Below are positions 2,794 to 30,159 of a stretch of 64,000 nt of DNA, piece by piece; the first letter of the stretch is position 1, and every line of letters starts with the position of its first letter. Origin of the DNA: an uncultured Actinomycetes bacterium (GTDB lineage Bacteria > Actinomycetota > Thermoleophilia > UBA2241); assembly GCA_963799395.1 (NCBI GenBank), contig CAWCWZ010000051.1:6595-70594 (forward strand). Direction: 5' to 3'. A model generated the notes under the pieces. That model did not search any database. It was not told the origin of the DNA and saw only the letters and a program-made list of their open reading frames with translations. The position numbers and the translations under genes are program-made.

Positions 2794-2845
2794 GTGGGAT
2801 CGCTCCTCAGAGGATCGGCCGGACCACCGCGGCCTGTCGGTTTCG

Positions 2846-10806: not shown

Positions 10807-10808
10807 GT

Positions 10809-11448: not shown

Positions 11449-11727
11449 ATGGTAGCCGCACACGCCAATCTGCTGGACGAAGTGCTGCATGCGATGACGC
11501 AGCTTGACCCCATGGTCTATTTCATGATCGTCGTCGTGACCATCGCCTTCGGGATAACGGCCATGGTGCTGGTCGAGCTCTTTCCCGGGCGTCCCGGCAC
11601 AGAGGCCCAGACGCCACCGGCCGAGGCCGACGAGAACGACCGCGAAGGTGCAAAGACCACGACCGTCGCAGCCGACAGAGCCCGCGCGGCTCTGAGACCT
11701 ACTTCGCCGGCAGGGCGGCGTTGATCG
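11449..11727 (+). CDS. hypothetical small membrane protein
   Basis: MVAAHANLLDEVLHAMTQLDPMVYFMIVVVTIAFGITAMVLVELFPG... with a strong RBS (GAGAGAGGGtagccATG). It is divergent from the Nur-like gene. Coding status is uncertain in high-GC DNA. Confidence 0.35.
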
Positions 11728-13365
11728 AAAGCGGCACCTGCACCGCGGTCGCGGCTTCTTCGACTAACACCTCTATCTGCCAGCGGCCCTCGACCGAGAG
11801 TTCAAGGCCGCTGCCCTGCCAAACGCCGCCCGGGCCCTTGCTCAGGACGAGGGTCGAGGGGGGCACCGTGGCCTGCCCGGGCAGCGAGAAGTCAAGCTGG
11901 ACGCTGCGCAGGTCCGTGAGCGGCCGCCCTGAGGCATAATCGCTCACGGTCGCCGTGAACTGGTTGGAGCCGACGGTCCCCGGGCTCACGACCAGTCGCA
12001 CGCGGACCGTGGTCGCGTAGTCACTGCCCGAAAGCACCACCTGGTTCGATCCCGACGCCCTGGCGGCCGTCGCCGCCTCCCTGCCCGTGGCAACGCCGCC
12101 GAGCACACCGGTCACCGCCAGGATGGCCACTCCCAGGACGAGCTCATTGCGCAGCGTGCGCCGAAAAGGAGGCAGAGCGTCGTCTTTTGCCAAGGTGGGC
12201 ACCTGCAGGAAGCGATTGCGCGCCCCCAGGGCGACCAGCGCCACAAAGAGCGCCAGCTTGACCAGCAGGAGACGGCCGAAGCTCGTGTGCAGGAGGTTGG
12301 CCGGCGCCCCGACCTCGGCCACGGCGCGAGACACACCGGTGAGCAACACGATGGCCAGGCCGATGGTAGCGACCGTCGAGAAGCGCCGGCCGGCAGCCGC
12401 CCGCTTGGCGCCCGGCAGCCCGCGCAGCCCGACCAGCAGCCGGCCAGGCCACCGACCCACACCCCGACCCCCATGACGTGCAGCCACTGCACGGTCAAAT
12501 TGAAGAAGCGATAGGGGGAGGGGCCGTTGGCGTGAGTCTCCCAGATGACCGTCATTACGGCAAAGGCGGCCGCGCTGCCCAGCGCAGCCAGCGTGGGACG
12601 GCAGGGCAGGGCCGCCGTGGCGGCCACCGCCAACCCGCAGAGGACCAGCACGGCGGTGAGCTGGGCCACCATCACGAGGCCCTCGGGTGTGCCAAAGAGC
12701 GGCAGCAGCGAGGGGGCACGCACGATGGCGCGCTCCGTCAGGATGAAGGTCGATACCCCCACCGCGGCCAGCGCCCAGCCCAGCCACAGCAGGGTGGGCC
12801 CTCCGGCGGGCAGTTTGCCCCGCCACACAAACCAGCACGTGCAGGCCGCCCCGAGAAGCAGGACCAAGCCCGCCCACAGCAGCCAGCGCCCGGCAGCCTG
12901 TGTGCCAGTCAGCCAGGGCGAGGTGCTGACGAACTTGCCGAAGGGCGCCACCTTGCCGATGTTGGCGACCCCGACCCCGAAGGCATAGGCGCCGGTCACA
13001 TAGTGGCCATCCAAGGCAGAGACCGTGTGCCAGTCCACCGTGTAGACGCCGTGAGGCAGGGGCCGGCTGAGCACGATGACGAGCTGCTCGGAGTTGCTGG
13101 GCACAGCATGGGAGGGCGAGGCACCGGGTACCGCCTGGCCCTGCGTGTTGACCACCTGGGCGCCCGACAGCGTCGGATCGACCGGCTCGGTGAAGGTGAG
13201 CAGGATCTGCTGCGGTGAACGCGCTACCGTGCCGTTGATGGCCGGGGAGGCATGAATCAGCAGGGCGTGCGCCGCAGCCTGTGGGGCCGGCAGCGCAAGC
13301 CACAGCCCGGCCACCAGCCCGACAAGGGCGACGGCGCGAGCCGTCACACGGGCGTGGGCGCGCAC
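11699..13365 (-). CDS. copper resistance/uptake CopC-CopD fusion (YcnJ-like) with C-terminal YtkA-like domain; apparent frameshift near 12350
   Basis: N-terminus has a signal peptide plus CopC (AHALLIHASPAINGTVARSPQQILLTFTEPV...VYTVDWHTVSALDGHYVTGAYAF). CopD TMs follow. The C-terminal part lies in the frame of ORF 11699..13303. Confidence 0.8.
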
Positions 13366-13371
13366 CTGACC

Positions 13372-14063
13372 TCAGGCTTCAACGCGGTCGTCGGCCCCGT
13401 GTGACTGACGAACGGCCGACGGCGACCTTCTGGTCAGAAGCGCGACGCAGGCCACGACCAGGCCAAGCGCGCCGACCACCATGCCGATGATGCCGAAGAG
13501 CTGCGCGCGCGACGCCTGCGACGAGCTCGCCAGACGTGGCAGGGCGACGGCGACGCGCTGTGAGAGCTCGGTCATGGTCGGGGTCTGGAGGGGAAACTCA
13601 ACGGCCGTGGGGTCCTGCACCGGGTTGAACGTCGTGGGACTGCTCGTGAAACTCTGGTCTATCGTCTGCGAACCGATCGTGCCGGTGAAGTGAAACGTGT
13701 AGTCACCGGGGCGCGGTGGGGAACAGCCAGGCACGATAGTCGCCGGGTGTGCCCAGAGCCGGTGTCCGGATCGAACGTCGGCTCGAGGCCGAACACCATC
13801 GACTGGCTGCCGAAGATGACGGTCACGTGGAGGGTGGTGCCGAGATTGACGACCGGCTTGCCGCTCTCGAGGTAGGCCAGCACGAGCTGGACGCTGTTCT
13901 CCTGGCCTGCGTAGGCCGGTTCGTTGCCCCAGCCCACCAGGAAGTGGTAGGCGCCGACGTCGCGCGCCTCGTGAGCGAACGCCGGAGCGGCGGTCGCCGA
14001 GAGTGCGATTGTAGCCACGGCGAACGCCGCGGACAGCCGCCACCCAAGCCTTCGTCTTTTCAC
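13372..14063 (-). CDS. ycnI: YcnI-like (DUF1775) copper-binding protein with C-terminal TM anchor; apparent frameshift near 13720
   Basis: N-terminal part (VKRRRLGWRLSAAFAVATIALSATAAPAFAHEARDVGAYHFLVGWGNEPAYAGQENS...) is in the frame of ORF 13659..14513. C-terminal part (GDYTFHFTGTIGSQTIDQSF...LFGIIGMVVGALGLVVACVALL) is in the frame of ORF 13372..14268. GTG start ~14063 with GGGGG RBS. Confidence 0.75.
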
Positions 14064-14456
14064 GTCCGTACCCCCATCGCCGTCGGCAGACTTTCGCTCG
14101 CGGCCGCCCGGCCGACCGCGGCCCGAACGCGAGGTCGACGGTCGTGGCACGACGAACACCCCCAAAGACCGGCCCGCCCGATGACCGGACGAGCGACGAT
14201 GCCCCGTCGGCATGGCTGGCTGCGAACGACTCCGCGGTGTTTTGCCCACCGCGCGCCGTGTCGAGCACGTTGACCGTCTGAGCGCGACCAGTCGAAGGCG
14301 TCGCTGACCGCCGAGCGCATCCCCCGGCTGGCGCGCGGACGGTCGCTCCGGGCAGGCGGGCTGCTGTAACCTGTCACCCGACAAGAGCGATGCCTCCCAA
14401 AGCAGGGCCTGCTTCCGTGGGAGCCGCTCGTCCGGCAGCGGCGCGAGGGGGTCGAG

Positions 14457-15005
14457 ATGAGAGTGGTGGGGGTCCTGGTCGTTGCCATGGCGCTGGTCAT
14501 CGGAGTCGTCCACAGTTCACTCACTGCAAGGCCATGGCCCGCGTCGTCGGGCTCGACGATGAGCATGGGCGGCTCGGCCACGGCATCCGCCGGCGTTCGC
14601 GATGGCCCACCCGCACGACCGCGGCCGCACGCCCACGCCGATGCGCTGCTACTGCGACCGCCCGGGCCGAGGTCGGGGTCGCGCTGCCACTCGCCGCCGC
14701 CGGCGTCCTGCTGTTCGTCAGCCGGCGAAGGGGAGACCAGCCGGGCTCTGGCCGTACTCATCGGTGTGCTCGGCGCCGTCGCCATGCTCCTGCCGACGCG
14801 TGCTGATCGGCGTCTGTGCGCAGAGCAGCGCGATCTGCAACACCACCATGCGGCCCATCCTGCTGGCGGCCGGGGGGGCGACCGTGGCGCTCGGCCTTGT
14901 CACCCTGGTCAGAAACGAGTTGAGCAGCGGACCGGGGAAGGACGGGCAGCCGCTCGCCGTTCAGGCCGACCGCGCTTCAGCCGGCCGACGAGGCCGCCAT
15001 TGTGA
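14457..15005 (+). CDS. hypothetical membrane protein (uncertain; possible non-coding)
   Basis: ATG with good RBS (GAGGGGGtcgagATG) and two hydrophobic helices (VVGVLVVAMALVIGVV; ALAVLIGVLGAVAMLL). No recognisable family. It overlaps the frame-shifted start of the ABC permease. Confidence 0.2.
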   Translation: MRVVGVLVVAMALVIGVVHSSLTARPWPASSGSTMSMGGSATASAGVRDGPPARPRPHAHADALLLRPPGPRSGSRCHSPPPASCCSSAGEGETSRALAVLIGVLGAVAMLLPTRADRRLCAEQRDLQHHHAAHPAGGRGGDRGARPCHPGQKRVEQRTGEGRAAARRSGRPRFSRPTRPPL

Positions 15006-16209
15006 GGTTTCGGCGGGTCTCACCGGACTCGCCCTGCGCGACCTGGCGGGCAACGAGTCGCGAAGCTGGCTGCTGGGTCTGTGCGCCTGTTGCATCGCGG
15101 CCGTCGCCGTCACTACGGTGCTCGTCGTACCGCGCCCAGGAGAACCTGCACCTCGCCGCCTCCCGGCTGGGAGCCGACGTCGTCGTCGTGCCGCGCGGCG
15201 CCGAGACCCAGATCGACGGCGCGCTGCTGATCGGCACGGTCTCGAAGACCTGGATGCCCAGCGCCGACGTCGCCGAGGATCGCCGCCGTCAGGGGAGTGG
15301 CCGTGGCCTCTCCCCAGATCTATCTGGAATCCCTGTCGCATGCCTCGTGCTGTGCCGTCAGCCGCATGTTCATCGTCGCCTACGACCCGCGCACGGACTT
15401 CACGGTGGGACCCTGGCTCCACCACGGTCTGGGCGGCGAGCTGGGTCTGGAGCAGGCGGTCGGGCGGGCTGGCGACGTGTCGGTGCCGGTCAATCACAAC
15501 ATCATGCTCTACGGCTACACCATGTGGCTGCGAGGCAAGCTCGAGCCCACCGGCACGAACCTCGACCGAAGTCTCTTTATCAGCCTGGCGACCGCCAACG
15601 CCATGGCCCGCAGCTCGCGCACGACGGCCGTCAGGCCGCTTCTCATCCCCAAGGACAGCGTCTCGTCGGTGGTGCGCTGCCAGGTCGGCTGGGGCAGGAC
15701 CCGGGCATGATCGCCCGGACCATCAGCGAGGTGGTCCCCGGCGTGCGGCGATCGCCAGCCCGCGACCTGCTTCGCCTCCTACCGCGCAGATCGGCGACCT
15801 GCTGCGCGTCATGCTCGTGGTGCTCGGTCTTGCTGCTCACCCTCGGTGTGGTCGTCACGGCAGCGCTGTTCGCCATGGCCGCCCACGACGGCGGCGCGAG
15901 CTCGGTGTGCTGCGCGCTTTGGGGGCCACCCGGGGCGCGGTGCTCATCTCGCTCCTCTCCGAGGCGCTCGTCCTGGCGCTCGCCGGTGGTCTGGCGGGCG
16001 CCGTCGTGGCCGCGGTCGGTGTCGGTCTGTTCCACACGCTGCTCGTCTCGGCCTTCGGCTTTCCCTTCCTGTTCCCCTCGTTCGGCCGACTCGCCGGGGA
16101 GATCGCGCTGGGACTCGCCTTGGCTCTCGCCGTCGTCGTCGCGGCGGCGGCCGTGCTGCCGGCCCTGCGCGTCAGCCGGCAGGAGCCGGCGACCTCGATG
16201 CGCGAGTGA
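14848..16209 (+). CDS. ABC transporter permease, FtsX/MacB family with extracytoplasmic domain; at least three apparent frameshifts
   Basis: N-terminal TM segment LALRDLAGNESRSWLLGLCACCIAAVAVTTVLVVP. Middle segment AQENLHLAASRLGADVVVVPRGAETQIDGALLIGTV. Extracytoplasmic domain IYLESLSHASCCAVSRMFIVAYDP...NIMLYGYTMWLRGKLEPTG. Intact C-terminal FtsX TM bundle ELGVLRALGATRGAVLISLLSEALVLALAGGLAG...ALRVSRQE. These are spread over three frames. Confidence 0.7.
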   Translation: MRPILLAAGGATVALGLVTLVRNELSSGPGKDGQPLAVQADRASAGRRGRHCEVSAGLTGLALRDLAGNESRSWLLGLCACCIAAVAVTTVLVVPRPGEPAPRRLPAGSRRRRRAARRRDPDRRRAADRHGLEDLDAQRRRRRGSPPSGEWPWPLPRSIWNPCRMPRAVPSAACSSSPTTRARTSRWDPGSTTVWAASWVWSRRSGGLATCRCRSITTSCSTATPCGCEASSSPPARTSTEVSLSAWRPPTPWPAARARRPSGRFSSPRTASRRWCAARSAGAGPGHDRPDHQRGGPRRAAIASPRPASPPTAQIGDLLRVMLVVLGLAAHPRCGRHGSAVRHGRPRRRRELGVLRALGATRGAVLISLLSEALVLALAGGLAGAVVAAVGVGLFHTLLVSAFGFPFLFPSFGRLAGEIALGLALALAVVVAAAAVLPALRVSRQEPATSMRE

Positions 16210-16212
16210 CCG

Positions 16213-16907
16213 ATGATGCCGCATCGCCATGCGAGAGCTATCAGGTCGCCCGCGAGCGGCCGATCGAGGCCCTGCGCGGCGTCGGCACCTCACATCGAGC
16301 GGTGGCGAGTTCGTGGTCGTCACGGGACGCTCCGGAGCCGGCAAGACCACCCTGCTCAACGTCATCGCCGGCCTCGCGCGGCCCACGAGCGGCAGCGTCA
16401 CGGTGGACGATGTCGATCTGTGGAGCATCTCTGACCGCCGGTTGTCGCAGCTGCGCAACCGCACGATGGGGTTCGTCTTTCAGTTCCCCAGCCTGCTGGC
16501 TTCGCTGCCCGTGCTGCAGAACGTCGCGCTGCCGTTGTCGTTCGCCGACGGCGCCGACCACGACGGACTGGCGCGAGCCGTCGAGCTCTTGACCATGGTC
16601 GGCCTGGCGGACAGGCTACGGGCCTACCCCGGCCAGCTCTCGGCCGGCCAGCAGCAGCGGGTGGTGATCGCCCGGGCCCTGCGTCAACCGACCGCGGATC
16701 CTGCTGGCCGACGAGCCCAGCAGCGACCTCGACGAAGAGACGGAGGTCGAGATCATGAGCCTGCTGCGGCGGATCCATGCGGAGACGGACGTGACCATCG
16801 CCCTGGTCACGCACACCCGGCAGCTCGTCGCCTACGGGACTCGTCACCTCGCCATGGCGAACGGTGCGCTTGCCGCTGAGACGCCGGGCCGCAGGGCACC
16901 CGCTTAG
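16213..16907 (+). CDS. ABC transporter ATP-binding protein (MacB/LolD-like); at least two apparent indels
   Basis: GEFVVVTGRSGAGKTTLLNVIAGL, LSAGQQQRVVIARAL, then after a +1 shift ILLADEPSSDLDEETEVEIMSLLRRIHAETDVTIALVTHT...ending at TAG ~16907. The N-terminal 30 aa are in yet another frame. Confidence 0.75.
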
Positions 16908-16953
16908 ATCGGGCGGGTCACGACCGGGCGGGTCACGATCGGCCGACCGGCCC

Positions 16954-18469
16954 TCACCTACAGACCGACGATCGCGTCGAGGCGCGCCATGTCGAGGTGA
17001 GCTTCGACGTGGTCGGCGAGACGCTCGATGTCGGATGGGCCGGCGCCGCCAGTGCCCGGTGCGCGTCGGGCAGGCCGGCCGCGGCCCGCAGCCGCCCGAG
17101 GAACGCCTCCCTGAATTCGGCGGCGTCGAACAGGCCGTGCAGATAGGTGCCGCAGACCAGCCCGTCGGCGGAGACGGCGCCGTCGGCGTGGGTAGCCTCA
17201 GCGCTCGCCGCCACGTCCATGAGCGCGGCGACGCCGGGCGCCAGGGTTGTGGCACCCATGTGGATCTCGTACCCGTGCAGCGGCGTGCCCGCGGCCACAA
17301 GGGCCGAGCCGCTCGCTTCGCCGCTCACCCGCACCGTGCGCTTCGCTGCCCGGAACGTCGTGTCGACGTCGAGCAGGCCCAGGCCCGCCACCTCGGCGGC
17401 GGCCGATTCGACCCCCACGGGGTCGAGGATGCGGCGGCCCAGCATCTGGTAGCCGCCGCAGATGCCGATCACCGGTGTGCCGGCGGCGGCGGCCTGCGCG
17501 AGCGCGGCCGCGAGGCCGCGCTCGCGCAACCAGGCCAGGTCGGCCACCGTGCTCTTCGTGCCCGGCACGATGACGGCGGCGGCGGCCTGCAGGCCCTCCG
17601 GGGTGGTGACGAACTCGACGTCGACGTCGGGGTCGTCGGCGAGGGCATCGAAGTCGGTGTAGTTGCTGATGAAGGGCAGGCGTACGACGGCGATCCGCAG
17701 CGGCGCGCCCGGACGTCGGCGCCGCTCGTCGTCGATCGCCAGCGAGTCCTCCTCGTCGCCGCGCCAGTCGTTCAGGAAGGGCACGACGCCGAGGGTGGGC
17801 ACGCCGGTGCGCTCCTCGAGAAAGGCGAGTCCCGGGTCGAGCAGCGCCGCGTCGCCGCGGAACTTGTTGACGACAAAGCCGCGCACCAGCGCCTGCTCGG
17901 CCGGCGTGAAGAGCTCCATGTGACCGACCAGCGAGGCGAAGACGCCGCCCCGGTCGATGTCGCCGACCAGCAGCACCGGCGCCCGGGTGTGCAACGCCAC
18001 TCGCATATTGACGATGTCGCGGTCGCGCAGGTTGATCTCGGCCGGAACTGCCGGCGCCCTCGACCACCACGAGGTCGCTGGCCGCGCGCAGCCGGCCGAG
18101 CGCAGCCGTGACGACCGGCCAGACCTCCGCCTGGTAGGCGTGGTACCCGGCGACCGTCATGTCGTCGACCGGCCGGCCCATCACGACCACCTGACAGGCG
18201 CGCTCACTCGACGGCTTGAGCAGCACCGGGTTCATGTCGAGGTGGGGTTCCAGCCCGGCCGCGCCCGCCTGGTACACCTGGGCGCGGCCCATCTCGCCAC
18301 CGTCGGACGTGACGAACGAGTTGAGCGCCATGTTCTGCGCCTTGAAGGGCGCCACGCGCAGGCCGCGACGCGCGTAGATGCGGCAGAGGGCCGCGACCAG
18401 CACCGTCTTGCCGGCATGCGAGCCGGTGCCCTGGAGCATGACGATGCGGCCCGGCGGCGCGGTGCTCAT
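16954..18469 (-). CDS. cobQ: cobyric acid synthase; apparent frameshift near 18060
   Basis: N-terminal part (MSTAPPGRIVMLQGTGSHAGKTVLVAALCRIYARRGLRVAPFKAQNMALNS...VVVEGAGS) is in the frame of ORF 17198..19021. C-terminal GATase part (VLLVGDIDRGGVFAS...GICGGYQMLG...GYEIHMG) is in the frame of ORF 16954..18006. Confidence 0.85.
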
Positions 18470-18543
18470 CGCCAGACCTTCGCGGCCACGAGCGCGGCGA
18501 GTCCCGACGACAGCAGCAGAGAGACGGCGCCGGCCACGGGGCC

Positions 18544-19797
18544 TCAGGCCGCCGCGCCGTCGCCGGATACGGCCGACGCCAGTCTCGTCCGTAGCCGCCG
18601 CACGTCTCTCAACGTGAGGACCCACAACGAGGCGGCCAATCCGAGCCCGGCCGACAGCCAGCACGTGGTCGTCAGGCCGATCGCCGCGGTGACCGGCCCC
18701 GCCAGTGCCAGCCCGACCGGCCACAGGGCCAGCGAGCACATCCAGTCCCAGGCGCTGACGCGCGCGAGCGCCTCGTTGGGAATCTCGAGCTGTAGGGTCG
18801 TCGTCCAGAGCACCGAGTTCACCCCTACGGCCACGCCACGGAAGGCTTGCACGACGGTCAGCGCCACGAAATGTCCGCCGAGGGCCAGCACCAGCGGCGA
18901 GGCCGCGGCCGTCGCCCCGAGCAGCGCGCAGGCGACCATGGGACGTGCGAAACGAAGAAACGGCGCGCTTGCGCCGCCTACGAGGATGCCGCCGCTGAAG
19001 ACCGCGAGCACGATGCCCCAATGGGCCGCGCCGTGAGGGTGACCGTTCAGAACCAGCGGGCCGAGCACCTGGAACGGTGCCGAGACGATGAACAGCAGCA
19101 AGGCGGTGCGCAGGAGCATGGCCGCAAGCCAGGGCCGGTCCCGTACCTCTCGCCAGCCGTCGCGAAGCTCCCCGAGAAACGAGCCGACCTGCCGGACGCG
19201 CTCGGCCGGCACGACGCGCAACGTGGCGAGGAACCCGGCGCTGACCAGGAAGGTCGCGGCGTCGATGGCGACGGCACCACCCGGGCCGATGAAGGCGATC
19301 AGGGCGCCCGCCACGGCGGGGCCGACCATCAGGCCGATCCCGTAGGCAAAACCCAGCACGGCGTTGGCCGCCTGCACGTCGCGCTCCTCGACGAGTTGCG
19401 GCGTGAGGGCGCCGGCGGCGGGGACGAAGAAGGCCTGAGCGGCGCCGTAGGCGGCGAGAAGGACCACGAGCTCCCAGATGCGCGCGGTGTGCGTCAGCAG
19501 GAGAAGGGCAAGGATGGCCTGCGAACAGGCGCGCACGCAGTCTGAGACGAGCATCACGCGCTCGCGGCGCAGGCGGTCGCCCCAGACCCCGGCGACCAGG
19601 GTCAGCGCGACCAGCGGCGTGATCTGGGCGGCCAGGACAATGCCCAAGTCGGTCGCCGAGCCCGACATCCGCAGGACCGCGAAGGTGACGGCGACCGGGG
19701 TCAGGCCGTCACCGAAGGCCGAGATCGCCTGCCCCAGGAACAGATTGCGGAAGTTACGGACGCGCAGGACGTTCCAGCGCCGGATGAATCCCGTCAT
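18544..19797 (-). CDS. MFS transporter
   Basis: Intact 417-aa 12-TM protein (RNFRNLFLGQAISAFGDGLTPVAVTFAVL...). It sits between cobQ and the CbiR-like gene. Confidence 0.85.
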   Translation of the reverse strand: MTGFIRRWNVLRVRNFRNLFLGQAISAFGDGLTPVAVTFAVLRMSGSATDLGIVLAAQITPLVALTLVAGVWGDRLRRERVMLVSDCVRACSQAILALLLLTHTARIWELVVLLAAYGAAQAFFVPAAGALTPQLVEERDVQAANAVLGFAYGIGLMVGPAVAGALIAFIGPGGAVAIDAATFLVSAGFLATLRVVPAERVRQVGSFLGELRDGWREVRDRPWLAAMLLRTALLLFIVSAPFQVLGPLVLNGHPHGAAHWGIVLAVFSGGILVGGASAPFLRFARPMVACALLGATAAASPLVLALGGHFVALTVVQAFRGVAVGVNSVLWTTTLQLEIPNEALARVSAWDWMCSLALWPVGLALAGPVTAAIGLTTTCWLSAGLGLAASLWVLTLRDVRRLRTRLASAVSGDGAAA

Positions 19798-19869
19798 CGC
19801 GTGAGTCTATACCAACATTGCCGGAACTTCGGCCCGCCCGTCAGGCATGCGCCCGCCGACCCGTCTGTC

Positions 19870-20733
19870 TCAGCCGGCCGGGATCAGCCGCTCGCGCCGC
19901 AGGTACGCAACGCTCGCCGACAGGCCTTCGGGCGTGAGCACCTCGATGATGGTGCTGACCCCGGACCGCCGAGCCGCCGCCAACACCGCGCCCGCGTCCA
20001 CCACGCCGCAGCCCAGGGCCAGGTGAGAGTCAACGCCGGTCGCGCCGTCCACCGGCCCCGCGTTGTCGTGCAGGTGCACGTGGCGGAGCTGCGCCTGCGG
20101 ATCGCGCAGGAACTCCGCGAGCGCCTCGCAAGCCGCGGCGTGCCCCGTGTCGAGCGCCAGGCCGAGCGCGCCAAGGTCGAGGTCGCCGGGGCGCGCGAAA
20201 TGGCTGTGGTCGGCACCCATCAGGTTCTCGAGCGCCACCTCCACGCCGTACTCGTCCTGAAGGGCCGCCAGCTCGACGATGCTCCGCTGGAGCGCATCGC
20301 GAACGGCGCCGCTGCGCACGATGGGTGTGAGGTCGTAGTCGGGGTGCAGCACGTAGACGGCGGCGCCGACATCTGCGGCCGCCTCGAGGTGGCGGCGGTG
20401 CACGGCGACCGCGGCCTTGCGGGCCGCCTCGGACGGGTGCCCCACGTCGGCGTTCTCCCAGGGGCCGTGCACGGTCAGCCGCAGGCCGCTCTGCACGACG
20501 GCCCGCCGGTTGGCCGCCCTGATCAGACTGTGGTTGTAGTCGCTGTAGACCTCGGCGAGCTCGGCGACGGATGCGATGTGGGCCAGAGCGGCCGCCAGCG
20601 GCTGGTCGAACCAGGCCGTGGCGGCGAGGCCGATGTCGGGGGGCAGGAGCACGCGGCGGCCTACCTCCGACTCACCTGGACGGCACCCGGGTCCTGGCCG
20701 AGCCTGCACCTCAGAAGGGGTACGTCTTGCCAC
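19870..20733 (-). CDS. sugar phosphate isomerase/epimerase (xylose isomerase-like TIM barrel, AP endonuclease 2 superfamily); possible CbiR-like cobamide-remodeling enzyme
   Basis: Intact 287-aa ORF with TIM-barrel metal-ligand pattern (VHGPWE...VLHPDY...ALENL...HVHLHDN). The CbiR suggestion rests on context (cobQ, DUF4430, corrinoid uptake genes) and on fold family only. Confidence 0.6.
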   Translation of the reverse strand: MARRTPSEVQARPGPGCRPGESEVGRRVLLPPDIGLAATAWFDQPLAAALAHIASVAELAEVYSDYNHSLIRAANRRAVVQSGLRLTVHGPWENADVGHPSEAARKAAVAVHRRHLEAAADVGAAVYVLHPDYDLTPIVRSGAVRDALQRSIVELAALQDEYGVEVALENLMGADHSHFARPGDLDLGALGLALDTGHAAACEALAEFLRDPQAQLRHVHLHDNAGPVDGATGVDSHLALGCGVVDAGAVLAAARRSGVSTIIEVLTPEGLSASVAYLRRERLIPAG

Positions 20734-22054
20734 TGAGCGCGACCACGACCTCCGACGTGGTCAGAAGCGGCATGGCAAGAGTCGTGCCGTAGTGGTAGAA
20801 GGCACCGGAGCTCGCCTGCAGCGAGAGCAGAAAGCTGATCGGCGTCTTGCCGCCCTTCTTCCACGCTCCACCGGCGGGGTTCTGCCCGACGGCGCGGATC
20901 GCCTGGACGGCCCATGCGGTCGACTCGGCGTTGGTCGTGCCGCCCATCCCGGAGGTAAAGCCCCCGTTGCTCATCTGCTGGCTGTGCAGATAGGAGAGGG
21001 CGCGCTCGATCGCGGTGTTCGAGGCGGAGATCCCGCCTGACCTCAGCGCCTCGACGGCCGCGGCCGTGTCATCGGGGTCCGGCGCCCCGCCGGGGGTGAA
21101 GGAGAACCCACCGTTCGACGCCTGCTGGCTGGTAAGCCAGGAAACCGACTTCGTGAGCTGCGAAGAGCTCTGCCCCGCCGCCCTGAGAGCGATCACCGCC
21201 CAGGTGGTGGTGGAGACGGCGGCGTAGGTGTCGCTCCCCCCCGGCGTCGTGGAGAAGACTCCGCTCTGGCTGTTCTCGTAGGCGAGGAGATGAGCCACGA
21301 GATCGATGTGTCCGCTGCCCGCCGTGCTTATCAGCGACGAGACCCCGGCGGCGTCATATGTGATGATCATCTTGGCGTAGAAGTTGGCGGGGTTGCTGGC
21401 CGTCCCGGAGCCGCCCGTGGCCACCTCGGTGATGTCCAGCGACTGCAGGTAGGCGATCGGGCCCTTACCCCCCGAGCGCCTGAACGTCGAGGGACTCTTG
21501 CCGGTAGCCGCGATAGCCTGAACCACCCAGGGCGTCGTGGTCGTCGTCTGCCCAGACGCGCCAAACCCTCCCGAGGTCAGCTGATTGGCGCGAAAATAGG
21601 AGACGGCCTTGCCGACCGAGCTGCGCACCTGCGAAGCCAGCGATGAGGAGCTGGAGGTCTTGGTCTTGGTCGGCTTGGGCTTCGGGGTGGACTTCTGGCT
21701 CGATGACTGCAGCGTTGAGGCCGCCGAACGGGGGGCCGACGGGGCCTGCACCGTACCGGCACCGGACTTGGCCGCCGGTTTCGTTGCCGCCGACTTCGTT
21801 GCCGCCGGCGTCGGCCCCGAAGCCGCCGACGCGGTCGCGCCCGGCGAAGGCGCCGCAGCATCCGCGAGGCTCGAGATCGCTGCCGCCGATGACGCGACCG
21901 GCGAAGAGGCCGCGGACGGCGACCCACCGCCCGACGACGACGAGCCCCTCCCGTTGACCAAGACAAAGACGCCGATCGCCACCACAAAGCCAACCACGAT
22001 GATCGCCGCGATGCTGCGCTGGACCGCTGCCATGTGTCGCGGACCACTGTTCAC
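20711..22054 (-). CDS. membrane-anchored prenyltransferase/squalene-cyclase-like alpha/alpha-toroid repeat protein
   Basis: N-terminal TM (IAAIIVVGFVVAIGVFVLV). A Ser/Ala/Pro/Thr-rich linker is followed by at least four QxxxGGF repeats (NQLTSGGFGA...PWVVQAIAATG; QQASNGGFSF...DTAAAVEALRS; QQMSNGGFTS...TAWAVQAIRAVG; LQASSGAFYH). Intact 447 aa. Confidence 0.7.
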   Translation of the reverse strand: MNSGPRHMAAVQRSIAAIIVVGFVVAIGVFVLVNGRGSSSSGGGSPSAASSPVASSAAAISSLADAAAPSPGATASAASGPTPAATKSAATKPAAKSGAGTVQAPSAPRSAASTLQSSSQKSTPKPKPTKTKTSSSSSLASQVRSSVGKAVSYFRANQLTSGGFGASGQTTTTTPWVVQAIAATGKSPSTFRRSGGKGPIAYLQSLDITEVATGGSGTASNPANFYAKMIITYDAAGVSSLISTAGSGHIDLVAHLLAYENSQSGVFSTTPGGSDTYAAVSTTTWAVIALRAAGQSSSQLTKSVSWLTSQQASNGGFSFTPGGAPDPDDTAAAVEALRSGGISASNTAIERALSYLHSQQMSNGGFTSGMGGTTNAESTAWAVQAIRAVGQNPAGGAWKKGGKTPISFLLSLQASSGAFYHYGTTLAMPLLTTSEVVVALSGKTYPF

Positions 22055-22250
22055 GCGAGCGCCTCCACCATCCCGAACGGACCTGAGCCGCCCGAGCCGT
22101 CACGCACCTCGGGCGCGGCCGACGGTCCCGTTGCGTGTACTATCGGCCGCGCGCCGAGTACTACGCCCTCACCCCCGCTGCCCGAACCGGCCACGAGCAG
22201 TGACGCAGCCCCCGCGCGCTGCATGGCCGTCGTGAGGACGCAGCGGACCA

Positions 22251-23309
22251 CTACTTCCCCTTGGGGATGACGATGGTCTGGACGGTCGTGCGGCCCCAGC
22301 CGTCCATGGCGGTGACCTTGACCCTGATGGACGTGGTCTTGGGCGCCGCGGGGCTCAGATGCAGCGTCAGCGTCTGCGCGCCGGCGGCTCGTGCCCCACT
22401 CCACTTCGCGAGGACCTTGGAGCCCTTGGTGACGGCGATGGTGACGGCCGAGCGTTCGCTCAGCTTGAAGTGCACCTTGACCGTCTTGGCGTTTGTGCGC
22501 CCTGCCGCAAGCGCGCCGAGAGCGGGCTTGGCGCCCACGTTGAGCAACACCGTCGCGGAGGGTGCGTAGACATCGGTGTCCATGGCCTTCTCAGACCAGA
22601 CGGCATACGTGCCCGACGCCAGGTCCTTGACCGCGAGCGTGGAGGCGGCACCCCCGTAGACCTGGCTGCCCACGTGAACGGTGGCGCCGTCGATGGCCGG
22701 GAACTGCGCCGGAGTCTGGATGTCGGTGGTCGAGAAGCGCGTTGCGTCGGCCTGGCTGTGGACATCGGCGAGGTTCGCCCCGACGGTGCTCACGGTGACG
22801 GTCTGACCGGGCGTAAAGCCATGCTTTGCCGTGCCCCCCGTGACTCTGGTCACAAGCAGGAACGCCGGCTTGCTGAACGTGGCGTCGGGGTTCTGGAACC
22901 ACAGGTAGCTGTCGCCGGCGACCGTCTGCAGGCTGCCCGCGCCGACAGGCGAAGCGTAGCCATTGACGGCGATCTCCCACCAATTGCTGTCGTCGCCGGC
23001 CATCGCGAGTCCGTCGATCGAGTTGACATACGGACCGGAGCCGCTGACGCTCATGTCCCAGGGCAGGCCACCCAACTGCAAGGCGGCCGCGGTGGCTCCC
23101 AGAGCGGTAGCGTTCGTCGTGGTGAATGAGGTGCCGTCGGTATCCACGATCTTGCCGCCGGCGGCGCTCTCGCTGACCGTCGTCCTGGGCAGCACCTGGA
23201 ATGTGGCCCCTTGCACACGCACGCTGCTCGACACGGCCAGCGCGGCAGGCGCGGCCACGAGAGCGATGGTCGCCACGGCGACCAGCACCAGAATGATCCT
23301 CTGCTTCAT
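22251..23309 (-). CDS. secreted DUF4430 (transcobalamin beta-domain-like) protein with C-terminal Ig-like region
   Basis: Signal peptide MKQRIILVLVAVATIALVAAPAALA. DUF4430-type core: VRVQGATFQVL...PYVNSIDGLAMAGDDSNWWEIAVNGYASPVGAGSLQTVAGDSYLWFQ. Intact; ORF-track N-terminal extension discounted. Confidence 0.7.
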   Translation of the reverse strand: MKQRIILVLVAVATIALVAAPAALAVSSSVRVQGATFQVLPRTTVSESAAGGKIVDTDGTSFTTTNATALGATAAALQLGGLPWDMSVSGSGPYVNSIDGLAMAGDDSNWWEIAVNGYASPVGAGSLQTVAGDSYLWFQNPDATFSKPAFLLVTRVTGGTAKHGFTPGQTVTVSTVGANLADVHSQADATRFSTTDIQTPAQFPAIDGATVHVGSQVYGGAASTLAVKDLASGTYAVWSEKAMDTDVYAPSATVLLNVGAKPALGALAAGRTNAKTVKVHFKLSERSAVTIAVTKGSKVLAKWSGARAAGAQTLTLHLSPAAPKTTSIRVKVTAMDGWGRTTVQTIVIPKGK

Positions 23310-23537
23310 GTGAGCTCCTTTCGTGAAACGGACCCCTGAGTCTACGTCGAACACAACTGCGGTCGTCGAACTGATACTGCGTATCATATACTGCAGTGGT
23401 CTAGTGTTGGCTAGAGCAAGCATGCCGACGTAGCTGTGAGGGTCCCCACACGTGACCGTGGAGAGTCAGCTGGGTCGCGCCGAACCTCGGCGGTGGGCCT
23501 TGAGACGGCTGACGTTGACACCTTCGACGGTGCCACT

Positions 23538-24503
23538 GTGACGCGCATCGCGTTTGCGCACAGATCGTCTGCGACCTCGCGGCCGCACATCACAGCCGCG
23601 ATCGTCGTGCTCGTGCTCCTGCTGGCCGTCGGAGTCGCGGGCTGTGCCGGAGTGCGGGGCAAGTGCACACCAGCGGCCAAGGGGCACGTGCCCGGCGCCG
23701 GCGAGGTGCGACTCATCGTCTCGGAGCACTTCGGCACCACCGTCATGCTCGACGAAGTCGTGCCCTGGAAACAGGAGCTCAACGTGATGACCCTTCTGGC
23801 CGCACACGCTCGCGTCGACACCGAGTACGGTGGCGGGTTCGTGAGCGCCATCAACGGTGTCAAGTCGACCTTTGGCGGCGTCTCGTCGACGCAGGCCGCC
23901 GACTGGTTCTACTGGGTCGACGGGATCATGGCCGGTGTCGGGGCCGCCGACTACCGGCTTCACGGCGGCGAGACCGTCTGGTGGGACTTCCATCAGTGGG
24001 TCGACGCGATGTCGATCCCGGCGACGCTCTCCGCCTTCCCAGCGCCGTGGAAGGGCCGTCCCCTGGAAGTCGCCACCAACGAGGCGTGGCCTGGGCTTCA
24101 GCAGTGGACGCAGGCGTCGGGGTTGACCCTGGGCCAGACGAGCTCCCTGGCCACAGGCGCTCCCGCCGGCGGCCTCATCGTCGCGACACCGCAGGAGGTC
24201 ACCACCACGAGGTGGCTCAGCCAGCTTCTCGACAGTGGCGACGGCGTGCAGATGGTAAATCTGAAGGGAGGAGGGATCTCGCTGCTCTCACCCGCTGGTG
24301 CTCAGGGACCTCCTGCGGACGCGGTCGCTTTGGCTCTGCCCGATACCAACAACGGCAACCGCCCCTTCTTGGTCGTGCTGGCCGATTCGACCTCAGCTGC
24401 GCAGCGCATGTTCATACTCCTCACGCCCAACGCCCTCGCGGGCCACGTGGCTGTGGCGTTGGTCAACGGCTCCCTTGTCACGCTGCCCTGGCACGCCCAG
24501 TGA
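23538..24503 (+). CDS. DUF4430 (transcobalamin beta-domain-like) lipoprotein
   Basis: Lipobox LLLAVGVAGC. DUF4430 core: GEVRLIVSEHFGTTVMLDEVVPW...GGGFVSAINGVKSTFGG...DWFYWVDGIMAGVGAADYRLHGGETVWWDFHQW. GTG start ~23538 (track ORF starts earlier at 23436). Confidence 0.7.
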   Translation: MTRIAFAHRSSATSRPHITAAIVVLVLLLAVGVAGCAGVRGKCTPAAKGHVPGAGEVRLIVSEHFGTTVMLDEVVPWKQELNVMTLLAAHARVDTEYGGGFVSAINGVKSTFGGVSSTQAADWFYWVDGIMAGVGAADYRLHGGETVWWDFHQWVDAMSIPATLSAFPAPWKGRPLEVATNEAWPGLQQWTQASGLTLGQTSSLATGAPAGGLIVATPQEVTTTRWLSQLLDSGDGVQMVNLKGGGISLLSPAGAQGPPADAVALALPDTNNGNRPFLVVLADSTSAAQRMFILLTPNALAGHVAVALVNGSLVTLPWHAQ

Positions 24504-25509
24504 ACGCGCCAGCCGCGAACGATCTCAGCAAGCCGCCGGCCACTGCCGCCTCGTCTGGGAGTCGCGTGCCGGCCTTCCGCGTGGCGCCGGCGATGCCGAG
24601 ACCGACCTCCAAGCGGCGACTCGAGCCGCGTCGCCGCGGCCTTGCGCGCCGCCAGCCCGTCGCCATCGTCGCCTACGTGGGCGCGCTCACCCTCGCCGCC
24701 CTGGTGCTCGTCAATCCCCTGCAGGTCACGGCGCTACTGGCGCTCTGCCTCGTCGTCCTGGTCGCCGCCGGGCGCGGCCGGGCGGCCTGGCCCTATCTCA
24801 AGACGGCTCTCTACATCGGTGGTTTCCTGGCCATCGTCAACCCGCTGATCAGCCGCAGCGGCAGCACCGTGCTCTGGCAGCTCCAGCTTGGCCCCTTCGA
24901 CGTGCCGATCACCATCCAGGGAATCGCCTACGGTGTGACGACGGCGCTGCGCATCATCGCCGTGATCACGGCCTTCGCCCTCTTCTCCTCGTCCTCGACC
25001 CCGACGACCAGCTCGGCCTCATGAGCCGGCTGTCGTTTCGCACCGGTCTTGTGATCTCGTTGGCCTCCCGGCTCTTGCCGGTGTTCTCGCGCGACGCGGC
25101 GCGCATCTCCAATGCCCAGCGCGCTCGCGGGGTAGAGCTCGACGCCGGCCGTCGACGCGCCCGCGTCGCGGCGCGCGTACCTTTGCTGGCCGCGCTCCTC
25201 GCTCAGAGCCTCGAGCGGGCCGTCGACGTCGCCGCCTCCATGGAGGCACGCGGCTTCGGCGCCCGCGACCGTTCGCACTGGTCGCACGGGCGGCGCTGGA
25301 GAACTGCCGACCTGGTCACCACGGCGGCGGCTCTGCTTGGCGCGGCGGCGCTGCTCGGGGGCCTCTTCGCCGGGGCCTTCTCGTACAACTTCTATCCCTT
25401 GCTGGACGACCCCTGGAGCCAGCTCGCCGGCATCTGGTGGCTGCTCGCCTTCGCGGCGCTCATCGTTCCCGCACTCTGGACCCTGCCGTGGCGACGCTCG
25501 CGCGACTGA
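24500..25509 (+). CDS. ecfT: ECF transporter T component (EcfT/CbrU-like); apparent frameshift near 24990
   Basis: First segment ALYIGGFLAIVNPLISRSGSTVLWQLQLGPFDVPITIQGIAYGVTTALRIIAVITAFALFS is in the frame of ORF 23663..25024. Second segment RLSFRTGLVISLASRLLPVFSRDAARISNAQRARGVEL... is in the frame of ORF 24298..25509. GTG start overlaps the upstream TGA (GTGA). Confidence 0.75.
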
Positions 25510-27161
25510 CCGACGTCACCTACTGGTACCCCGGACGCGAGAGGCCGGCTCTCCGCGACGTCTCGCTACGGATCGGTCCAGCCGAGGTGATCCTCGTGGT
25601 CGGCTCCTCGGGCAGCGGCAAGTCGACCTTGTTGCGCTGCCTGAACGGTCTCGTGCCGCACTTCCACGGCGGCACCCTCGCCGGGCACGTGGAGGTCGAC
25701 GGCAGGGACACGCGCACGTCACACACACACGAGCTGGCCCATGCCGTCGGTCTCGTCTTCCAGGATCCCGAGAGCCAGTCGGTGATGACCACAGTCGAGC
25801 GTGAGATCGCCTTTGGCCTCGAGAACAGGGGGGTGCCGAGCGCTGCGATCAGCCGCCTCGTCGAAGAGGCGCTTATTCTCCTCAGCCTGTCGCACCTGCG
25901 ACACGCCTCGCTCTCGACACTTTCGGGTGGAGAGCTGCAGAAGGTCGCTCTGGCCGCGGTCGTGGCCACCCAGCCGCAACTGCTGCTCCTGGACGAGCCG
26001 ACTTCGCAGCTCGACCCCGTGAGCTCCGAGGAGCTGCTCGCCGCCATCAGGCGACTCGCGGAGGACACGGGCTCGACCATCATCCTCGCCGAGCATCGCA
26101 CGGAGCGCTGCCTGCACCTGGTCACCCGCGTGCTATATATGGATGACGGCGTTCTGGCAGAAGACGCCGATCCGCAGGACTTCGCGGACTGGGCGCTGGA
26201 CGGACACCGCGGCTTGCTGCCGCCGGTCGCTCGCCTCTTCGCCCGCAGGACCAGCGACCGCTCGGCCGGCGCCGGCGACCCGGATCTGCCGATGACGGTC
26301 AAGGACGCTCGCCGTTTGCTTGTGACCCACGAAGACCCGCAGCCGCGTCGCAGCCCGGCCACGTCATGGAAACCCTCCGGCGGCATCGTCCTCGAAGCGC
26401 GCAAGCTGGCGATCGGCTACGACCCCGACGAGCCGCTGCTCGAGGGCTTGAGCTTCGGTCTGGCGCGCGGCGAGGCAGTGGCCCTCATGGGCGAGAACGG
26501 CGTGGGCAAGTCGACGCTGATCCGTCACTTCATCGGCTTGGCGCGGCCGCTGGCCGGCAAGGTCGTGCTGCTCGACCGCGACGTCTCCGAGATCACCGTG
26601 GCGGCGGCGGCACGTGACTGCGCCCTCATGGGTCAGAACCCGAACGACCTGTTCGTGAAGGACACTGTGGCCGAGGAGATCGCCTTCACGCTCGACGCAC
26701 TGGGTATCACCGGCGAGCGGCACGACTCCCTGACGGCCAAGATCGTCGCCGAGCTTGATCTGGAAGCTCTCCTGCAGCGGAACCCACGCGACCTGTCGGG
26801 CGGCGAGCGCACGCGGGTCGCGCTCGCCGCCACCGTCTGCGGAGACCCCACCATGGTCGTGCTCGACGAGCCCACGAGAGGCATGGACGCACGGCACAAG
26901 GCCGAGCTTGCCGCGACGATACGCCGCTGGGTCAGTGCGGGCCGCTGCGTCGTGCTCGTCACGCACGACGTGGAGTTCGCGGCGAGCGTCGTCGAGCGGG
27001 TGATCGTGCTCGGCGACCGCGGCCTGCTGGCCGACGGGCCCGTGGCCGACGTGCTCGACGGGTCGCTGTTCTTCTCGACGCAGATCAACCGTCTGTTCCG
27101 CCGCGTGCTTCCCGGCATCCTGCGCGAGGACGAGATCCAATGGGGAGAGGGAGCCTCGTGA
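25488..27161 (+). CDS. ecfA: fused duplicated ECF transporter ATPase (EcfA-EcfA', CbrV-like)
   Basis: Intact 574-aa ORF with two complete ABC cassettes (GSSGSGKSTLL / LSGGELQKVALA / LLLLDEP and GENGVGKSTLI / LSGGERTRVALA / MVVLDEP). Confidence 0.9.
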   Translation: MATLARLTDVTYWYPGRERPALRDVSLRIGPAEVILVVGSSGSGKSTLLRCLNGLVPHFHGGTLAGHVEVDGRDTRTSHTHELAHAVGLVFQDPESQSVMTTVEREIAFGLENRGVPSAAISRLVEEALILLSLSHLRHASLSTLSGGELQKVALAAVVATQPQLLLLDEPTSQLDPVSSEELLAAIRRLAEDTGSTIILAEHRTERCLHLVTRVLYMDDGVLAEDADPQDFADWALDGHRGLLPPVARLFARRTSDRSAGAGDPDLPMTVKDARRLLVTHEDPQPRRSPATSWKPSGGIVLEARKLAIGYDPDEPLLEGLSFGLARGEAVALMGENGVGKSTLIRHFIGLARPLAGKVVLLDRDVSEITVAAAARDCALMGQNPNDLFVKDTVAEEIAFTLDALGITGERHDSLTAKIVAELDLEALLQRNPRDLSGGERTRVALAATVCGDPTMVVLDEPTRGMDARHKAELAATIRRWVSAGRCVVLVTHDVEFAASVVERVIVLGDRGLLADGPVADVLDGSLFFSTQINRLFRRVLPGILREDEIQWGEGAS

Positions 27162-27961
27162 GCCCGCAAGAGCCCAAGGCTCTGCCTGGTCGCCTGCGGC
27201 GCGATCTCGTCGCCTGGCTGCTGCTGGCCGTTCTCGGTGTCGTCGCGCTGGTGGCGGCAGGCTATGCCGTCCTCGACCCCGGCGCCGTCAACTGGGGCTT
27301 CCTCAGTCTCGTACTCATCGCCGCCGTCGTCGGCTTCGCACTGGTCGCCTATGGCCTGCGCGATTCGAGCGCCAGCGAGCTGTCGCTGATCGCCGCCCTG
27401 GCGGCCCTGGCCACGGCCGGTCGTGTGCTCTTCGCCTCACTGCCCAACTTCAAGCCGGTGACCTTCATCGTTCTCGTCTCCGGCGTCGCTCTGGGGCCGG
27501 CTCCGGGCTTCATGGTGGGCGCGACGACGGCCGTGGTCTCCAACCTGTTCTTCGGTCAGGGGCCGTGGACGCCCTGGCAGATGCTCGCCTGGGGACTGGT
27601 CGGCGTAGTGGGCGGGCTCATGGGCATCAAGGGCAGGCGGCCCCGGCGCTGGGAGCTGGTGCTGGTCGGAGCGGCGCTGTCCGTCGGCTTCGACTGGTTC
27701 GTGACCCTCTGGATGTATCTCTCCTACACTCCGCACACCTGGCCCGCGCTCGTCGCGCTCTACGGCCAGGGCCTGCCTTTCGACGTGTCGCACCTGAGCG
27801 CCACGGCCATACTGGCGGCGCTGTTCGGTCCCCGGGCGATCGCCATCATCGCGCGTTTCCGCGCCCGGACGAGCGTGAGGTTCCTGCCGGCGTCACCAGC
27901 GCGCCGTGCACTGCCCAGCCTTGACGGTCCGCAGCGATTCGACAATGCTTCTCAGCCATGA
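27140..27961 (+). CDS. ECF transporter substrate-specific (S) component (CbrT-like candidate)
   Basis: Intact 273-aa protein with 6 predicted TMs. Overlaps the ecfA stop. Family assignment within S-components is not possible by eye. Confidence 0.65.
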   Translation: MGRGSLVSPQEPKALPGRLRRDLVAWLLLAVLGVVALVAAGYAVLDPGAVNWGFLSLVLIAAVVGFALVAYGLRDSSASELSLIAALAALATAGRVLFASLPNFKPVTFIVLVSGVALGPAPGFMVGATTAVVSNLFFGQGPWTPWQMLAWGLVGVVGGLMGIKGRRPRRWELVLVGAALSVGFDWFVTLWMYLSYTPHTWPALVALYGQGLPFDVSHLSATAILAALFGPRAIAIIARFRARTSVRFLPASPARRALPSLDGPQRFDNASQP

Positions 27962-28414
27962 AGGTCCAAAACCCACACCAGTCCTCGATCGACGAGGTCT
28001 TCGCCGCCCGCGGCATCCCGCTCACACGGCAGCGCCGCGCCATCTGGCAGTACTTCGCGTCGGCCGGCCGGGCGAGCACCGTCCCGGAGGCCGCGGAGGC
28101 TCTCCGCACGCAGGGCATCGGCCAGGCGACCGTCTACCGTGCGGTCGGCTTGCTCGACGGAGCTTGGCCTGCTGCTCAGCGTCCACGTCGGCGAAGGGCG
28201 CCCCTGTTATGCGGCGCCACCGGTCGGTCACAGTCATCCGCTCATCTGTGGAGTCTGCCGCAGGATCGTCGATTTCGACGGTGATGGGGACCTCCGCTAC
28301 CTCGAGAAACAGCTCGAGACCACGACGGGGTTTGCCATCTACGGCCATCATCTGGAGGTCTACGGCATCTGCCCTGACTGCAGACGAGAGCAACGCGAGG
28401 CCATGCCCTCCTAG
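27958..28414 (+). CDS. Fur-family transcriptional regulator (Zur/PerR-like); apparent frameshift near 28150
   Basis: N-terminal part MKVQNPHQSSIDEVFAARGIPLTRQRRAIWQYFASAGRASTVPEAAEALRTQGIGQATVYRAVGLLD is in ORF 27958..28284. C-terminal part VGHSHPLICGVCRRIVDFDG...YGHHLEVYGICPDCR is in ORF 28139..28414. ATG overlaps the S-component TGA (ATGA). Confidence 0.7.
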
Positions 28415-28559: not shown

Positions 28560-28757
28560 CTACGCCTTCACGGCGACCAGCGAGACACCGAGCGTGTCCT
28601 CGAGCTCCTTGATCTTGGCGACCTGGCCGCCGTCGATGGCAGCCGGCTCCGCCGCATGGCAGGCGAAGGCGAGCACTGGGACCCCCAGGTCCTTCTCAAG
28701 CGCCCCGATCTTCTCCAGCTGCTGCTGGTCGAGCTTGGTCGCAAGGCTGCACAGCAT
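28560..28757 (-). CDS. small hypothetical protein
   Basis: MLCSLATKLDQQQLEKIGALEKDLGVPVLAFACHAAEPAAIDGGQVAKIKELEDTLGVSLVAVKA. Non-biased composition. Lies downstream of the HTH gene in the cobO transcript direction. Confidence 0.35.
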   Translation of the reverse strand: MLCSLATKLDQQQLEKIGALEKDLGVPVLAFACHAAEPAAIDGGQVAKIKELEDTLGVSLVAVKA

Positions 28758-29438: not shown

Positions 29439-29478
29439 TCCCTCCTTTTCTGGCAACGGCCACGGCTCCTTGCGCGCA

Positions 29479-30075: not shown

Positions 30076-30159
30076 GGCTTCTCCTTTGTGGCGATGGAGT
30101 CCGTGGACGATGCGAGGAATGCGCGGCACGAGGAATGGCTCTGGGGGAGTGGGCGGAGG

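Follow-up and report, generated by a model that had tools for sequence, protein, structure and literature searches.

The window analysed here is a 64,000-nt stretch of contig CAWCWZ010000051.1 (assembly GCA_963799395.1, positions 6,595–70,594, forward strand) from an uncultured Thermoleophilia bacterium of the Actinomycetota. Spurious long ORFs are common in the window on account of its G+C content of ~70 %. A sequence-only reading of this DNA had drawn attention to a minus-strand ORF at 19870–20733, proposing that it encodes a xylose-isomerase-like TIM barrel of CbiR type, and this ORF is indeed a real coding gene, as indicated by its GC3 (0.88, against 0.70 for the genome), its Pfam match and its homologues. 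The plus-strand ORF that overlaps it (19801–20736; GC3 0.77, GC1 0.89) was discarded as a shadow ORF. The start at 20733, however, is that of the longest ORF and appears to be ~27 codons too long. A search of a 5.8-billion-protein collection returned 136 homologues (E≤1e-3), the full-length members of which are 255–260 aa long and begin with MxLPPDIGL, suggesting that the true start is most likely the GTG at 20652, with a GGAGG motif 11 nt upstream. The TIM-barrel gene so defined (19870–20652, minus strand) encodes a 260-aa AP_endonuc_2 protein and consequently no longer overlaps the gene upstream, the stop codon of which lies at 20711. The product lacks a signal peptide, suggesting that the enzyme is cytoplasmic and acts after import.

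On the minus strand, the genes follow one another in the direction of transcription as DUF4430 protein, toroid protein, TIM barrel, MFS transporter and cobQ. The first encodes a secreted DUF4430 protein resembling the transcobalamin beta domain (22251–23312; PF14478), with the signal peptide MKQRIILVLVAVATIALVAAPAALA; its longest ORF extends to 23423, and the start given here was inferred from the orthologue at the related locus L001. The second (20711–22054) encodes a membrane-anchored alpha/alpha-toroid, prenyltransferase-like protein (PF00432 Prenyltrans, 38 bits), in which an N-terminal transmembrane helix is followed by a Ser/Ala/Pro-rich linker; it is a putative extracellular corrinoid-capture protein, and its orthologues adjoin the TIM-barrel gene in loci L001, L010 and L013. 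Downstream of the TIM-barrel gene by 72 bp is an MFS transporter of efflux type (18544–19797; 2A0121/MFS_3, from Pfam and NCBIfam matches), and this pair recurs in L011 with 88 % identity. The cobyric acid synthase gene cobQ (16954–18469; NF001989, 387 bits) lies two genes downstream of the TIM-barrel gene on the same strand. It is frameshifted near 18046, such that the NF001989 match spans only profile positions 135–444 and the N-terminal domain is found in another frame. The view, implied by the sequence-only reading, that MFS/cobQ is a conserved pair is not borne out, as cobQ is absent from the corresponding position in L001 and L011; together with the 11.5–18.5 kb block, it is confined to the window lineage. 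Scanning of positions 16500–24000 detected no promoters and three terminator-like sites (1.7 expected), all of which fall within coding regions. Further downstream on the minus strand are a Fur-family regulator (10883–11287) and CbiM-PDGLE (together 9848–11287), identified by family matches as part of a cobalt/nickel importer, followed by CbiQ/CbiO (7764–9254). In L001 and L011, this Fur-cbiMQO unit directly follows TIM or TIM-MFS. No cobU, cobS, cobT or cobC was found within the 64-kb window; remodeling would require at least the first two of these.

Transcribed divergently from this gene group is an ECF importer operon, the first gene of which (23436–24503, plus strand) encodes a second DUF4430 protein, this one lipoprotein-like (PF14478, 46.5 bits), with a true start probably near 23607. 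It is followed on the same strand by a CbiQ-like ECF T component (24500–25509), which, compared with L001, is frameshifted near 24985, a fused A-A' ATPase with two ABC_tran domains (25437–27161, 196.6 bits) and an S component assigned by family matches (27140–27961; DUF6580/ECF-ribofla_trS). Judging from context only, the S component may be corrinoid-specific; there is no curated corrinoid assignment among its family matches. The operon ends with a Fur-family regulator (27973–28399), detected by tBLASTn with the L001 orthologue and by family matches and frameshifted near 28157. Between the two DUF4430 genes, a divergent promoter region of ~290 bp contains a 6-3-6 palindrome, TGATACtgcGTATCA (23372–23386), for which 0.03 matches are expected by chance, making it a candidate operator, possibly for a Fur-family regulator. 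Beyond the importer, on the minus strand, lies cobO, encoding an ATP:corrinoid adenosyltransferase (29479–30234; PF02572, 200 bits; NF004637, 184 bits), followed by an HTH regulator gene (28932–29537) and a gene for a conserved 65-aa protein without a family match (28560–28757), which in L009 is located directly between cobO and the TIM-barrel gene. A cobalamin riboswitch (RF00174, 82.4 bits, E=9e-19; 30258–30457, minus strand) lies upstream of cobO. All the neighbours named in the sequence-only reading are thus present (toroid, DUF4430, MFS, CobQ, ECF importer, cobO and riboswitch), and the riboswitch is within the 10 kb it had given, at a distance of 9.6 kb from the TIM-barrel gene. It nonetheless controls cobO and not the TIM operon, and a search of the divergent promoter region (22900–24000, E≤1) returned no second riboswitch.

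The predicted fold of the protein is clear. It matches PF01261 (AP_endonuc_2, xylose-isomerase-like) with 90 bits (E=2.6e-25), and an AlphaFold2 model computed with 30 homologues as input is a TIM barrel (mean pLDDT 94.6, pTM 0.92), in agreement with the fold originally assigned. Within the family, residues H62, H103, D105, E142, D168, H171, H191, H193, H195, D208, H210 and E237 are invariant, and among 105 distant relatives H62, H103, E142, D168, H171, H193, H210 and E237 remain invariant, with D208 conserved in at least 90 %. We compared these positions with the nine-residue trinuclear metal site of endonuclease IV (E. coli Nfo, 1qtw; Mycobacterium tuberculosis, 5zhz), which has the same TIM-barrel fold. 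Eight of the nine Nfo ligands fall on invariant family residues in a MAFFT alignment, for which we used a 285-aa sequence that we take to be that of E. coli Nfo and in which each of the nine ligand positions carries the residue expected there; the ninth ligand, H62, is matched where HMMER aligns the protein with the M. tuberculosis enzyme. Sugar epimerases of the PF01261 superfamily have a four-residue site. The alignments therefore point to a trinuclear phosphoesterase site of endonuclease IV type rather than a sugar-epimerase site, and the conservation of this ligand set suggests phosphoester hydrolysis rather than sugar-isomerase chemistry.

There are nevertheless differences from Nfo itself. 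It scores far below the cut-offs of the Nfo models (17.4 bits versus 129.65 for TIGR00587; 37.5 versus 244 for NF002198), and its family is multi-copy, with a genomic context other than DNA repair. The DNA-inserting residues R37, Y72 and L73 of Nfo lie opposite H41, N67 and A68, in an alignment that is shifted by three residues near H69/H62 and is uncertain there. Net charge and pI were dropped as an argument against DNA binding, being non-discriminating. The closest neighbour in both sequence and structure is the uncharacterised MJ1311 of Methanocaldococcus jannaschii (PDB 3wqo, ‘D-tagatose 3-epimerase-like’), which, unlike the protein studied here, has no known corrinoid context. A profile built from the nearest relatives of the TIM-barrel protein matches MJ1311 with 271 bits, placing it in an MJ1311-like group of endonuclease-IV-like barrels.

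CbiR, of whose type the protein had been proposed as a candidate, is itself an AP_endonuc_2 enzyme, splitting the phosphoribosyl bond of cobamides to yield cobinamide-phosphate (Cbi-P) and an alpha-riboside (PMC7733943). The enzyme is sensitive to oxygen, and EDTA inhibits it. In the same study, 80 % of CbiR homologues adjoined cobamide genes and 25 % adjoined transporters, Table S1 listed no Actinobacteria among 282 homologues, and a coupling of CbiR to uptake was already proposed (PMC7733943). The equivalog model for CbiR, NCBIfam NF041277, has a cut-off of 105 bits (E roughly 7e-30). It is the best NCBIfam match of the TIM-barrel protein, at 65.5 bits (E=4.9e-18), below this cut-off. The nearest representatives of 50 %-identity clusters were taken from 1.84 billion proteins searched exhaustively with HMMER: ten of them, scanned individually, all score 37–81 bits, none passing the cut-off, and among the 105 nearest, 24 match the CbiR model at E≤1e-18 (best 4.9e-24) and none reaches the cut-off. 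Used as a seed, the top CbiR scorer of the ten (P0238) recovered a haloarchaeal ‘sugar phosphate isomerase’ family and no CbiR; a tBLASTn search against plasmids gave matches in Haloferax only, and no CbiR structure was detectable in the PDB by sequence or profile. The resemblance also extends beyond the corrinoid-linked genes. Subfamily A, the clade to which the TIM-barrel gene belongs, scores 59–78 bits against NF041277, and the related clades B, B' and C score 66–77, 57–67 and 55–58 bits, respectively; paralogues without B12 context match equally well (55–77 bits), suggesting that the likeness to CbiR is a general trait of the family as a whole. If ‘CbiR-type’ is taken to mean membership of the CbiR family, it is therefore not upheld: the protein is placed outside the CbiR equivalog family by model scores, as distinct from a tree including CbiR sequences.

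There is nonetheless much in common with CbiR (Akkermansia muciniphila Amuc_1679; ACD05497.1/WP_081429195.1), namely the PF01261 domain, a length of ~250 aa and His/Asp/Glu metal ligands. Both genes adjoin cobamide and transporter genes, the host of CbiR is an anaerobe and that of the TIM-barrel gene probably is too, and the same reaction may be predicted for the two enzymes. The neighbours differ in kind, those of the TIM-barrel gene being uptake genes (ECF importer, DUF4430 and toroid) and cobO, and those of cbiR being the loop-assembly genes cobU/S/T; in addition, unlike CbiR, the protein lies within a family of many paralogues that is specific to Thermoleophilia. A second point of comparison is the remodeling enzyme CbiZ, an adenosylcobinamide amidohydrolase. 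CbiZ is uptake-associated and opens the nucleotide loop, as the TIM-barrel enzyme would; however, it has an unrelated fold and cuts an amide bond, whereas the bond predicted here is a phosphoester.

A scan of relatives, using one genome per GTDB species, revealed 78 family loci, almost without exception in metagenome-assembled genomes (MAGs) of Thermoleophilia or Actinomycetota. A single MAG carries as many as four copies; the family is thus expanded in Thermoleophilia. Several paralogue clades were resolved by neighbour-joining, with subfamily A (the window, L001, L009, L010, L011 and L013; 68–88 % identity to the TIM-barrel protein) monophyletic in 100/100 bootstraps. Corrinoid genes lie beside the TIM-barrel gene in all six of these species-level loci, in five different arrangements. 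The window and L011 share (DUF4430-toroid-)TIM-MFS. L001, to which L002–L004 and L012 are identical in arrangement, has DUF4430-x-toroid-TIM flanked by the ECF importer, cobO with a riboswitch and Fur-cbiMQO. L009 carries a B12 riboswitch, cobO, the gene for the 65-aa protein and TIM, followed by CODH/ACS with a corrinoid Fe-S protein. In L010, TIM is convergent with toroid-ECF S-ECF A, and L013 reads DUF4430-ECF T-A-S-TIM, where the stop of the S gene and the start of the TIM gene overlap by 4 bp. The linkage thus includes co-transcription with cobO under riboswitch control (L009) and, in L013, translational coupling of TIM to the S-component gene. Subfamily A was found only in three GTDB species representatives and metagenome contigs, so these arrangements come from one narrow lineage; the MAGs CAVXDR01, DATIYD01 and JAXGZO01 carry it. 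Since relatives of the host encode CODH/ACS with a corrinoid Fe-S protein, the host is probably an anaerobe.

The sister clades occupy other surroundings. Clade B (52–58 % identity) lies among AAA/VWA, DegV and cNMP-binding genes, and clade C, comprising about 30 loci, is immediately followed by a gene for a cNMP-binding-CBS-DUF294 nucleotidyltransferase. In five genomes, the clade B' gene immediately precedes znuA-znuC-znuB-fur. At L041 and L044, loci of two genomes, cbiZ is positioned upstream of the clade B' gene on the same strand, with cobO between the two in L041; cbiZ beside this sister clade is consistent with CbiR-like chemistry.

Linkage to genes for corrinoid uptake and adenosylation has persisted through rearrangement, which provides good evidence for corrinoids as what subfamily A acts on. 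Our best explanation of its role, which we advance tentatively and hold at a little short of even, is that the TIM-barrel protein is a cytoplasmic corrinoid nucleotide-loop phosphoesterase with a CbiR-like function, probably not a CbiR orthologue. Subfamily A would accordingly have been recruited into corrinoid salvage in an anaerobic Thermoleophilia lineage. Corrinoids would be captured outside the cell by the DUF4430 and toroid proteins and imported via the ECF importer. The TIM-barrel enzyme would then hydrolyse one of the phosphoester bonds in the nucleotide loop, most likely the phosphoribosyl bond, to give cobinamide-phosphate and an alpha-riboside, following which the loop would be rebuilt with the preferred lower ligand and the product adenosylated by CobO. 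In this scheme, we infer the substrate, the bond cleaved, the metal and the presence of loop-rebuilding genes.

The gene-context evidence would be accommodated equally by a corrinoid-pathway phosphoesterase catalysing another reaction, either a phosphatase resembling CobC or CobZ, with alpha-ribazole-5'-phosphate or adenosylcobamide-5'-phosphate as its substrate, or an enzyme processing the loop fragment released by CbiZ. Sites of endonuclease IV type also have 3'-phosphatase activity, and the adjacency of cbiZ and TIM in L041 and L044 would fit an enzyme that follows the amidohydrolase or works in parallel with it; that adjacency, however, belongs to paralogue clade B' and not to subfamily A, and the known CobC and CobZ are of other folds. 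We regard this alternative as quite unlikely. The sequence-only reading had also weighed a corrinoid role against sugar metabolism and favoured the former, which our data support. A sugar or sugar-phosphate isomerase/epimerase without a B12 link is what the JGI annotation of homologues would imply, yet no NCBIfam model for such enzymes matches the protein at E≤1e-4, the PDB sequence match to IolI has an E value of only 0.078, the extended set of His/Asp ligands corresponds to the endonuclease IV type and no carbohydrate genes occur in the subfamily A neighbourhoods examined, where corrinoid genes recur in the five arrangements described. We therefore consider this assignment very improbable.

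A housekeeping metallo-phosphodiesterase or AP endonuclease paralogue, placed at these loci by metal-regulon (Fur/Zur/Nur) organisation and perhaps with paralogue-specific metals, is a further alternative. The position of clade B' upstream of the znu-fur genes in five genomes, the proximity of Fur-cbiMQO to the TIM-barrel gene in the window lineage, and the Fur-family gene that ends the ECF operon, together with the palindrome in the divergent promoter region, are all compatible with such an organisation. For the endonuclease variant, nine of nine Nfo ligands are kept, and an earlier listing gave MJ1311, whose structure is the nearest one, as the predicted homologue of EndoIV in M. jannaschii (PMC2770678). 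Against this, cbiMQO is not near the TIM-barrel gene in L009, L010 or L013 and corrinoid genes are present in six of six loci; the universal neighbours of subfamily A are thus corrinoid genes and not metal importers, which weakens the metal-regulon account. Moreover, Nfo models return 17–51 bits against cut-offs of 130–244, and up to four copies per MAG would be unusual for a repair nuclease. Overall, we judge this explanation unlikely.

Returning to the loop-phosphoesterase reading, a fuller version of it can be proposed, which we consider possible if doubtful. Here, an MJ1311-like, non-orthologous metallo-phosphodiesterase would have been recruited independently of CbiR to open the nucleotide loop in import-coupled cobamide remodeling, linked by operon structure, and in one genome by translation, to an ECF importer with split transcobalamin-like capture proteins, in CODH/ACS-bearing anaerobic Thermoleophilia, while its sister paralogues, associated with the Zur regulon or paired with DUF294 nucleotidyltransferases, would have specialised for other phosphodiesters.

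Which B12 analogues are usable by a microbe is determined by cobamide remodeling, an activity that, to our knowledge, has been ascribed only to CbiZ, CbiR and some CobS enzymes. Neither the class of enzyme nor the idea is new, CbiR having been described in 2020. If the TIM-barrel protein were inactive on corrinoids, it would be an ordinary unannotated TIM-barrel gene. If our reading is correct, Actinomycetota would possess a second lineage of the superfamily, probably of independent recruitment and tied to an ECF importer with split transcobalamin-like capture proteins, and this would be the new element. This would mean that loop-opening phosphodiesterases evolved more than once, that the present CbiR HMM cut-off misses functional analogues and that predictions of remodeling reach soil and sediment Actinomycetota, which feature in no CbiR survey. 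The paralogue series, with its B12-, Zur- and nucleotidyltransferase-linked members, gives a point of entry to the function of the uncharacterised MJ1311-like group.

The toroid and DUF4430 proteins of the corrinoid-uptake locus (genes at window 20711-23423, minus strand), together with a second DUF4430 protein (window 23436-24503, plus strand), resemble a split transcobalamin displayed outside the cell, with the toroid corresponding to the alpha domain and DUF4430 to the beta domain. The toroid protein carries a transmembrane helix at its N-terminus and a long linker rich in Ser, Ala and Pro. A signal peptide is present in one of the DUF4430 proteins, and a lipobox-like VAGC in its counterpart.

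The two DUF4430 operons diverge from a promoter region that is free of riboswitches and contains a palindrome, TGATACtgcGTATCA (window 23372-23386; the region listed with this observation in the close relative L001 is 7055-7380). A Fur-box-like sequence, TTGATAATTATCATCATT, lies upstream of the DUF4430-ECF operon in a second relative (L013, ~5700-5730). The last gene of the ECF operon belongs to the Fur family, which suggests that corrinoid uptake is under metalloregulator control.

Comparison with L001 revealed three frameshifts in ~10 kb of the window, in cobQ (~18046), ECF T (~24985) and the Fur-family gene (~28157), which are due to gene decay or else to indel errors that long reads left in the assembly; unlike these genes, the TIM-barrel gene is an intact ORF. 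L001 and another relative, L011, both lack the block at window 11500-18500 between TIM(-MFS) and Fur-cbiM. The block, which includes cobQ, CopC and an FtsX-like permease, has the look of an insertion specific to the window's lineage. Elsewhere in the window are a fatty-acid synthesis cluster (accA, fabF and fabG; 2-3604) and parB and parA (53727-55598, minus strand); on account of the latter pair, a chromosomal origin may be nearby.

A conserved 65-aa protein (MLCSLATKLDQ...GVSLVAVKA) without a match in Pfam or NCBIfam is encoded in the window (28560-28757, minus strand), L001 (1975-2172) and L009 (5016-5213), always after cobO or after cobO and an HTH gene; in L009, its gene sits directly between cobO and the TIM-barrel gene.

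The TIM-barrel paralogues keep other company. Those of clade C form a tight gene pair with a ~612-aa protein containing cNMP-binding, CBS, DUF294 nucleotidyltransferase and DUF294_C domains, whose gene always comes immediately downstream on the same strand, at about 10.7-11 kb in every full-length locus (L007, L043, L048, L053, L056-L058, L060-L062, L064-L067, L069-L072, L074, L075, L078, L080-L083, L085, L086 and L088). In five genomes (L044, L084, L077, L046 and L038), clade B' genes immediately precede the operon for a zinc ABC importer of the Zur type (znuA-znuC-znuB-fur); in two, they lie directly downstream of cbiZ (L041, 8509-10768, with cobO in between; L044, 8948-10798).

Finally, CODH/ACS genes encoding CooS, CdhC, CdhD/E (corrinoid Fe-S protein) and the RACo activator adjoin the TIM-barrel orthologues of two relatives (L009, 6826-15645; L010, 58-2353), and these Thermoleophilia are therefore likely to be Wood-Ljungdahl anaerobes with a high corrinoid demand.
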